The position numbers were made by a program, and so were the translations under genes. Of a stretch of 64,000 bases of DNA, positions 3,031-6,992 are shown in pieces (positions within the stretch are counted from its first letter, which is position 1; each line of letters opens with the position of its first letter). Location of the stretch: NCBI RefSeq assembly GCF_055900595.2, contig NZ_CM148325.1. One strand, written 5' to 3'. The notes beneath the pieces are model-generated. The model saw only the letters and a list, made by a program, of their open reading frames with translations, was not told the DNA's origin and ran no database searches.

Positions 3031-3106
3031 TGGTGGAGCTATGCGGGATCGAACCGCAGACCTCCTGCGTGCAAAGCAGGCGCTCTCCCAGCTGAGCTAT
3101 AGCCCC
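3031..3106 (-). tRNA. alaV: tRNA-Ala (UGC), rRNA spacer tRNA
   Basis: Reverse complement reads GGGGCTATAGCTCAGCTGGGAGAGCGCCTGCTTTGCACGCAGGAGGTCTGCGGTTCGATCCCGCATAGCTCCACCA (76 nt, CCA encoded). Confidence 0.95.
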
Positions 3107-3148: not shown

Positions 3149-3225
<77 letters not shown>

Positions 3226-5200: not shown

Positions 5201-5773
5201 TTACGCCGGTTTTTGCTGCTTTTTTATCGCTTGCGGCAGGTCTGCCAGGCTATTTAACACCCAATCCGCCGCGTTTTCTGCTTCAGGCGTAATAGGTTTT
5301 CCCGTACGCACCAGCACTTTTGTTCCCACGTTCGCCGCAGCCGCTGCCTGCATATCTTCTAATTTATCGCCCACCATATAAGAAGCGGCCATATCAATAT
5401 GCAAATAATCGCGTGCTGACAAAAGCATCCCCGGATGTGGTTTGCGGCAGTCGCAGACCTGGCGAAACTCTTCAACACTACCCTGCGGATGATGCGGGCA
5501 ATAATAGATACCATCCAGATCGACATCGCGGTCCGCCAGCGACCAGTCCATCCACTCGGTCAGCGTTTCAAACTGTGCTTCAGTAAATTTACCGCGAGCA
5601 ATGCCAGACTGGTTGGTTACTACCACCAGCGCAAAGCCCATTTTTTTTAGCTCGCGCATGGCGTCAATGACACCGTCGATAAATTCAAAGTTGTCGATCT
5701 CATGGACATAGCCGTGATCGACATTAATGGTGCCATCACGGTCAAGAAAAATTGCGGGTACGCTCTTCGCCAC
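5201..5773 (-). CDS. gmhB: D-glycero-beta-D-manno-heptose-1,7-bisphosphate 7-phosphatase (HAD family)
   Basis: 190-aa ORF; HAD motif DRDGT near N-terminus; sits immediately upstream of the rrn promoters as in K-12. Confidence 0.93.
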
Positions 5774-5862
5774 CTTTTATAGCTCCTTAATAAGGCATGT
5801 GACGCTAGTATCGCATGTTTCGACCTGCAAGAAAGTGTTCTTCGCATAAACCTGATTGATTT

Positions 5863-5886
5863 AGACGTCTGGATGCCTTAACATCC
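5863..5886 (+). promoter_or_regulatory. MetJ operator (tandem met boxes) in metNIQ promoter
   Basis: AGACGTCT perfect met box at 5863-5870 followed by degenerate 8-bp repeats GGATGCCT and TAACATCC, 75-98 bp upstream of the metN start. Confidence 0.6.
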
Positions 5887-5960
5887 ATTTCATTGACGGC
5901 TTTGACCGTTTCAGGCATTCGAAATGCCACGACTAACTTAATGACGATAATAAATAATCA

Positions 5961-6992
5961 ATGATAAAACTTTCGAATATCACCAAAGTGTTCCACCAGG
6001 GCACCCGCACCATCCAGGCGTTGAACAACGTCAGCCTGCATGTGCCAGCTGGACAAATTTATGGCGTTATCGGTGCCTCAGGCGCGGGTAAAAGTACGCT
6101 TATCCGTTGTGTAAACCTGCTGGAGCGCCCAACCGAGGGTAGCGTGCTGGTCGATGGTCAGGAACTTACCACGCTGTCAGAATCCGAGTTGACCAAAGCT
6201 CGCCGCCAGATTGGTATGATTTTCCAGCATTTTAACCTGCTCTCTTCGCGCACTGTTTTTGGCAACGTGGCACTGCCGCTGGAGCTGGACAACACGCCGA
6301 AAGACGAGATTAAACGTCGCGTGACAGAATTACTGTCATTGGTTGGTCTTGGCGATAAGCATGATAGTTACCCGTCTAACCTTTCCGGTGGGCAGAAACA
6401 ACGTGTGGCGATTGCCCGTGCGTTAGCCAGCAATCCCAAAGTATTGCTGTGTGATGAGGCCACCAGCGCGCTGGACCCGGCAACAACACGTTCTATTCTC
6501 GAACTGCTGAAAGACATCAATCGTCGTCTGGGTTTGACGATTCTGTTGATCACCCACGAAATGGACGTTGTGAAGCGCATTTGTGATTGCGTGGCGGTGA
6601 TCAGTAATGGCGAGTTGATCGAGCAGGACACGGTAAGTGAAGTGTTCTCGCATCCGAAAACGCCGCTAGCGCAGAAGTTTATTCAGTCGACCCTGCATCT
6701 GGATATCCCGGAAGACTATCAGGAACGACTGCAAGCGGAACCATTCGCTGACTGCGTGCCGATGCTGCGTCTGGAGTTTACCGGTCAATCGGTCGATGCC
6801 CCGCTGCTTTCTGAAACCGCGCGTCGTTTCAACGTCAATAACAACATTATTAGCGCGCAGATGGATTACGCCGGTGGCGTTAAGTTCGGCATCATGCTGA
6901 CTGAAATGCACGGCACACAACAAGATACGCAAGCCGCCATTGCCTGGCTGCAGGAACACCATGTAAAAGTAGAGGTACTGGGTTATGTCTGA
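5961..6992 (+). CDS. metN: Methionine ABC transporter ATP-binding protein
   Basis: 343-aa ORF; Walker [13 protein letters not shown] signature LSGGQKQR, C-terminal NIL-type domain; followed by permease and lipoprotein genes. Confidence 0.95.

Follow-up and report, generated by a model that had tools for sequence, protein, structure and literature searches.

The 24 bp at positions 5863–5886 of the window, the 64,000-nucleotide stretch of DNA analysed here, very probably constitute the MetJ operator of metNIQ, with three tandem met boxes laid over the metN promoter. The feature is already known: it is the described K-12 MetJ operator at metN, and it is highly conserved and ordinary. On this reading the high-affinity methionine importer keeps its canonical SAM/MetJ switch, the operator having the same sequence as in K-12, and the importance of the finding beyond annotation is small. 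The case for the site is built on the in-register array, its position in the promoter and its conservation, and not on the perfect octamer alone.

The window is a part of the E. coli chromosome. A 401-bp segment around the site has a match in 5,424 of the 5,426 complete E. coli genomes. In those genomes, the RefSeq annotation gives gmhB and metN as the genes flanking the matched site. The gene order consists of gmhB, a 187-bp spacer and metN-metI-metQ, and the same order is found in K-12. The four open reading frames were identified with NCBIfam equivalog models (Table 1). The met boxes sit in the spacer shared by gmhB and metN, 90–113 bp from the GTG codon of gmhB. Farther upstream, tRNA-Ala(TGC) and tRNA-Ile(GAT) at 3031–3106 and 3149–3225 on the minus strand form the pair of an rRNA operon spacer, and rRNA operon sequence makes up the first ~4.8 kb of the window. 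The corresponding rRNA operon of K-12 is rrnH, with rrsH after gmhB.

Table 1. Features of the gmhB–metNIQ locus in the window; positions in parentheses are relative to the metN transcription start.
Feature	Position	Strand	Remarks
gmhB (LPS heptose synthesis)	5201–5773	minus	GTG start; NCBIfam equivalog GmhB
-35 hexamer TTGATT	5856–5861 (-36 to -31)	+	17 bp before TAACAT; right distance from the K-12 start
Met box 1, AGACGTCT	5863–5870 (-29 to -22)	.	Perfect consensus; 12.58 bits, the matrix maximum
Met box 2, GGATGCCT	5871–5878 (-21 to -14)	.	5/8 to consensus; 4.22 bits
Met box 3, TAACATCC	5879–5886 (-13 to -6)	.	4/8 to consensus; 3.63 bits; overlaps the -10 hexamer
-10 hexamer TAACAT	5879–5884 (-13 to -8)	+	Fits the starts mapped in K-12 and Klebsiella pneumoniae
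metN transcription start (A)	5892	+	Assigned by identity to K-12
metN leader, 69 nt	5892–5960	+	Start site to ATG
metN, ABC transporter ATPase, 343 aa	5961–6992	+	TIGR02314 MetN equivalog, 702 bits; RefSeq metN
metI, permease, 217 aa	6985–7638	+	NF008049 MetI, 452 bits
metQ, substrate-binding lipoprotein, 271 aa	7678–8493	+	NF008285 MetQ, 570 bits

The site reads ...GATTGATTT AGACGTCT GGATGCCT TAACATCC ATTTCA..., and it was scored with the MetJ information-weight matrix of Augustus & Spicer 2011 (PMC3228920, Table 3), applying cut-offs of 3.145 bits per box and 12.58 bits for the array total. An operator defined as at least two contiguous, in-register and unspaced 8-bp boxes is indeed present, each of its boxes scoring at or above 3.145 bits. 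The 24-bp three-box array totals 20.43 bits and is the sole qualifying array in the 64-kb window, which contains AGACGTCT in a single copy. Boxes 2 and 3 are weak, the latter lying barely above the per-box threshold (3.63 vs 3.145 bits), and the junctions between boxes are T–G and T–T, compared with T–A in the consensus repeat. There is no fourth met box, given that the in-register flanking octamers score -9.9 and -19.4 bits. A 'terminator-like' hairpin called at 5870–5887 was discarded; it is merely the dyad of boxes 2 and 3, and it lies upstream of the start site. The sequence-only reading had placed a perfect met box at 5863–5870, followed by two degenerate tandem octamers at the expected distance upstream of metN. 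AGACGTCT is found exactly there, GGATGCCT and TAACATCC follow in register, and 74 nt separate the last box from the ATG at 5961, the same distance as in K-12. The matrix scan that it had proposed for MetJ sites returned this array as the only match in 64 kb.

A lone perfect octamer is not significant at the scale of the window: 0.56 copies are expected per dinucleotide-preserving 64-kb shuffle, and 41% of the shuffles hold at least one. The array does exceed chance expectation. Its 20.43 bits were reached in none of 500 dinucleotide shuffles of the window, and the probability that both of the next in-register octamers score this well by chance is about 4e-5. The published thresholds are lenient, yielding 0.69 arrays per shuffled window; when the 187-bp intergenic spacer was shuffled, any qualifying array turned up in only 0.5% of the shuffles. 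As a point of method, a perfect 8-bp consensus in 64 kb is insignificant alone; what decides is the in-register array, together with promoter geometry and the phylogenetic footprint.

The metN start of K-12 was mapped by Kim et al. 2012 (PMC3415461, supplementary file 2) to position 222714 on the minus strand, with 83 reads and a 69-nt 5'UTR. The sequence upstream of it is given as ...TTAACATCCATTTCA, and also as TCGCATAAACCTGATTGATTTAGACGTCTGGATGCCTTAACATCCATTTCA. In Klebsiella pneumoniae, the metN start is the same A within the same core sequence (Kim 2012, PMC3415461). From 5839 to 5900, the window does not differ from K-12 by any substitution or indel; thus the K-12 start at 222714 corresponds to 5892 of the window. 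With the start taken from the K-12 and Klebsiella mapping, the array overlaps the promoter of a methionine transport gene. The three boxes span -29 to -6, so that they fill the promoter spacer and cover the -10 hexamer, a geometry that would fit repression by exclusion of RNA polymerase. The sequence-only reading had held that a metN start upstream of the boxes would speak against it; the K-12-mapped start lies 6 nt downstream of them. A consensus promoter scan missed the metN promoter, because the two hexamers give 8 of 12 matches and the scan requires 9 of 12. A weak internal start was also listed at K-12 position 221629 on the minus strand, with 14 reads (Kim et al. 2012, PMC3415461). It corresponds to about 6977 in the window, 8 nt before the metI start codon and within the 3' end of metN.

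The array is base for base the same as the published one. For K-12 b0199 metN, Table S1 of Augustus & Spicer 2011 (PMC3228920) gives 'agacgtctggatgccttaacatcc', with 3 boxes, 20.45 bits and 74 nt to the start codon. The K-12 metN operator (abc/metD locus, b0199) shares with the window the 24-mer, the -35 and -10 hexamers, the start position and the 74 nt that lie between the last box and the ATG. Compared with the K-12 MG1655 spacer, there are no indels and four SNPs (5838, 5901, 5905 and 5923), none of which falls in the operator or the promoter. The same 24-mer precedes metN in Salmonella and Klebsiella; close in-register variants occur in Yersinia pestis, Pectobacterium and Xenorhabdus, and shorter metN arrays in Hamiltonella, Haemophilus and Vibrio (Augustus & Spicer 2011, PMC3228920). 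Altogether, 121 of 122 enterobacterial genomes carrying metNIQ have met boxes in that analysis. The other E. coli MetJ operators (metA, metB/J, metC, metE/R, metF, metK, mmuP and mtnE/ybdH) are likewise made of tandem unspaced boxes resembling AGACGTCT, with 2–4 boxes per site, totals of 15–31 bits and positions near the promoters of methionine genes (PMC3228920). Among the listed K-12 sites, metN alone has a perfect consensus box, whereas boxes 2 and 3 of metN are weaker than usual.

Expression data from K-12 and E. coli bear on the function of the site. A K-12 lacZ fusion carrying 400 bp upstream of metN gave an expression ratio of 0.05 between the wild type and the metJ knockout, which is about 20-fold repression, and gel shifts were done on 400-bp operator fragments (Augustus & Spicer 2011, PMC3228920). 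RNA-seq of an E. coli metJ deletion gave log2 values of 3.98, 3.80 and 3.61 for metN, metI and metQ, respectively; as expression ratios, metN was up about 14-fold, metI 13-fold and metQ 11-fold. SAM/MetJ repression of the importer, which the sequence-only reading had proposed for this strain, is thus supported by analogy, through in vivo data on a K-12 promoter and operator identical to those of the window. The gene metJ lies outside the window, about 3.9 Mb away on the K-12 map; what is said of this strain therefore depends on the presence of metJ in 5,425 of the 5,426 complete E. coli genomes.

MetJ is a ribbon-helix-helix repressor that binds cooperatively to tandem boxes, with SAM as co-repressor (PMC3228920). 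A putative course of regulation can be proposed from these properties. When methionine is plentiful, SAM would be plentiful as well, and MetJ dimers would be loaded with SAM. The MetJ-SAM dimers would then bind neighbouring boxes cooperatively, the perfect box 1 presumably nucleating binding at the weaker boxes 2 and 3. Bound MetJ is expected to occlude the promoter sterically and to exclude RNA polymerase, which would turn off the high-affinity methionine importer. The occupancy assigned here to the individual boxes is likewise putative.

Conservation of the site was followed at two depths. Among 5,424 E. coli genomes, 5,349 agree with the window at every base of the 37-bp core that runs from the -35 hexamer to the start (5856–5892), and 75 carry a single mismatch there; over the adjacent 37 bp of the leader (5893–5929), only 18 genomes are identical to the window. 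Strain OkiPb01699, the sole genome fetched among the 75 with one mismatch, carries G5871A, by which box 2 becomes AGATGCCT. This change raises box 2 from 4.22 to 6.45 bits and restores the T–A junction, and the base A at 5871 is shared with operators of the Yersinia, Serratia and Erwinia type. Across Enterobacterales, loci were picked from species-representative genomes by a degenerate pattern for MetN codons 1–11, independently of the operator. The scan covered 120 loci from 32 named genera, and 119 distinct upstream regions were aligned. An array passing the published thresholds was found within 300 nt upstream at 115 of the 120 loci; at the remaining five, box 1 is perfect and box 2 is one base short of the cut-off.

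In the 119 regions, identity to the window is 0.96 for the -35 hexamer, 0.98 for box 1, 0.94 for box 2 and 0.96 for box 3. In the flanks, it is 0.59 upstream, 0.54 over 5887–5892 and 0.62 in the leader. The boxes are thus conserved in orthologous promoters at 0.94–0.98, compared with 0.54–0.62 for the flanking sequence. The -35 hexamer is TTGATT in 92 sequences and TTGACT in 22. Box 1 is AGACGTCT in 103 of the 119 and one base off in the others, and the natural variants of box 2, AGATGCCT and AGACGCCT, shift toward the consensus. Box 3 appears as TAACATCC (79 sequences), TACCATCC (20), TAACATCT (11) or TAGCATCC (8). Its third position is A in 91 sequences, C in 20 and G in 8, while the -10 bases T1, A2 and T6 are unchanged in all variants seen. 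The conservation footprint stops exactly with the last base of box 3 (5886), two bases past the -10 hexamer.

The double role of box 3 opens the question of how many boxes MetJ occupies. The third base of box 3 varies in 28 of 119 sequences, in a manner tolerated by a -10 hexamer and penalised by the MetJ matrix: this base ranks as critical in the matrix, yet counts least within a -10 hexamer. Some of the conservation of box 3, at the least, is therefore due to its role as a -10 element, and its occupancy by MetJ is the least certain part of the model. Accordingly, one can suppose that the true MetJ sites are limited to boxes 1 and 2, that TAACATCC is a -10 element resembling a met box, and that repression is exerted by two dimers in the promoter spacer. 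The low score of box 3 against its threshold is in keeping with this, as is the pattern in which position 3 varies and the bases critical for a -10 element stay constant. Furthermore, species with TACCATCC scored as two-box arrays, and the stated minimum for repression is two boxes (PMC3228920). However, conservation runs on through the CC at 5885–5886 and drops at the box boundary, and three boxes were counted in the published analysis (PMC3228920). We consider repression through two boxes unlikely, if by no means far-fetched; it differs from the three-box operator in stoichiometry only.

The position of the three-box operator between divergent genes also raises the idea that it is shared, and controls gmhB in addition to, or instead of, metN. 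The boxes do lie within the spacer common to both genes, and there are precedents for divergent genes with met boxes, metJ/metB and metE/metR (PMC3228920). Against this, the table of genes with altered expression in the metJ deletion includes metN, metI and metQ but not gmhB, and the published table lists no met boxes for gmhB (PMC3228920). A common spacer need not mean common control, since exbB shares one with metC yet is without MetJ regulation (PMC3228920). Relative to the candidate promoter of gmhB, moreover, the boxes would fall upstream of the -35 element, at about -62 to -85. Control of gmhB from this operator is thus very unlikely.

That candidate promoter is a second conservation island in the spacer. 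At 5806–5820, the 119 species share AGTATC[G/T]CATG, with at least 95% conservation over most columns. On the minus strand, the island reads CATG[C/A]GATACT (5808–5819), which looks like an extended -10 element (TGnGATACT, 5808–5817). The island is probably the promoter of gmhB, with transcription starting near 5801; the start sites given in Kim 2012 (PMC3415461) include none for gmhB. The Shine-Dalgarno sequence of gmhB, AAGGAG at 5782–5787 on the minus strand, is likewise conserved.

In Firmicutes, an S-box lies upstream of metNIQ and exerts SAM-dependent attenuation. This SAM-I riboswitch resembles the present system in the SAM-dependent shut-off of the same transporter; in contrast, the S-box works as RNA, through attenuation, whereas a repressor protein bound at the promoter would govern metNIQ here. 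Augustus & Spicer 2011 (PMC3228920) mention that related transport genes in Bacillus are under S-box control. We weighed whether control of metNIQ by methionine or SAM could run through a riboswitch-like RNA leader instead of a DNA operator. The 69-nt leader does carry a conserved hairpin at its 5' end and a GCCACGG motif. But no riboswitch or other Rfam family matched at E<=1 over 5700–6100 on either strand, the fold of the whole leader is ordinary (z = -0.33), and the hairpin is too small for ligand binding. Derepression in the metJ deletion, besides, accounts for the regulation, so that an RNA switch in place of the operator is highly improbable. Finally, that the site is a functionless palindromic octamer of the sort met about once per 64 kb has the shuffle frequencies of such octamers in its favour, but it is vanishingly improbable. 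Sequence conservation and the expression data in the literature have already refuted it: no shuffle reached the array score, the site, unlike its flanks, hardly varies in 5,424 E. coli genomes and 119 species, and it lies exactly in the mapped promoter of a known MetJ-repressed gene.

The leader has several features of its own beside the MetJ operator. A hairpin, GACGG-CUUUGA-CCGUU, lies at 5895–5909 and starts at +4 of the metN mRNA. Most of the 119 sequences have a hairpin at the 5' end, starting about 3–6 nt from it, with stems that are genus-specific: ACGG/CCGU, CAGGC/GCCUG, CCUUGG/CCAAGG, UCCC/GGGA and CUUUGG/CCAAAG. In Serratia and Hafnia, a U-rich run follows the hairpin. When the 119 sequences were folded one by one, the first 40 transcribed nt had a mean z of -2.0 and the next 40 nt of +0.24. 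RNAalifold on a MAFFT alignment of the leaders returned no consensus pairing, since the stems differ between genera and do not line up in the columns of the alignment. The conserved 5' hairpin is a lead, not a result. The simplest reading of a stem-loop at the 5' end may be stabilisation of the mRNA.

Farther down the leader, the motif GCCACGG is at least 90% conserved, the form in the window being GCCACGA at 5926–5932. It is followed by a conserved A-rich GATAATAAATAA, within 5924–5956, and GATAA(T)AAATAA precedes the ATG. The leader has no Shine-Dalgarno sequence before the metN ATG. From these same bases of the leader, the consensus promoter scan picked up ATGCCA-16-GATAAT, which would give an almost leaderless metN mRNA, and no start at that site is listed in Kim 2012 (PMC3415461). 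It is conceivable, if distinctly doubtful, that the hairpin, the GCCACGG motif and the A-rich stretch together form an undescribed cis-element, serving either in post-transcriptional control (mRNA stability, or binding of an sRNA or a protein) or as a conserved internal promoter. The literature lists metQ as a target of the GcvB sRNA, verified in one species column and conserved in the other; the target is metQ, and not the metN leader. Downstream of the MetJ switch, the operon is thus subject to a known form of post-transcriptional control. A 7-codon upstream open reading frame at 5941–5964 (ATG ACG ATA ATA AAT AAT CAA TGA), whose stop overlaps the metN start in ATGA, is probably fortuitous, since its ATG is not conserved outside Escherichia, where other genera have AATTAC or ACATAC.

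The leader of the window is itself a rare allele, set apart by the SNPs at 5901, 5905 and 5923. The 18 genomes identical to it over 5893–5929, out of 5,423, include strain 2013C-4282, and 5,220 E. coli genomes differ from it at 2–3 positions. Two of the three SNPs fall in the loop of the first hairpin, and the third replaces a U.G pair of a second hairpin by U-A. The predicted structure and energy of the rare allele are the same as those of K-12.
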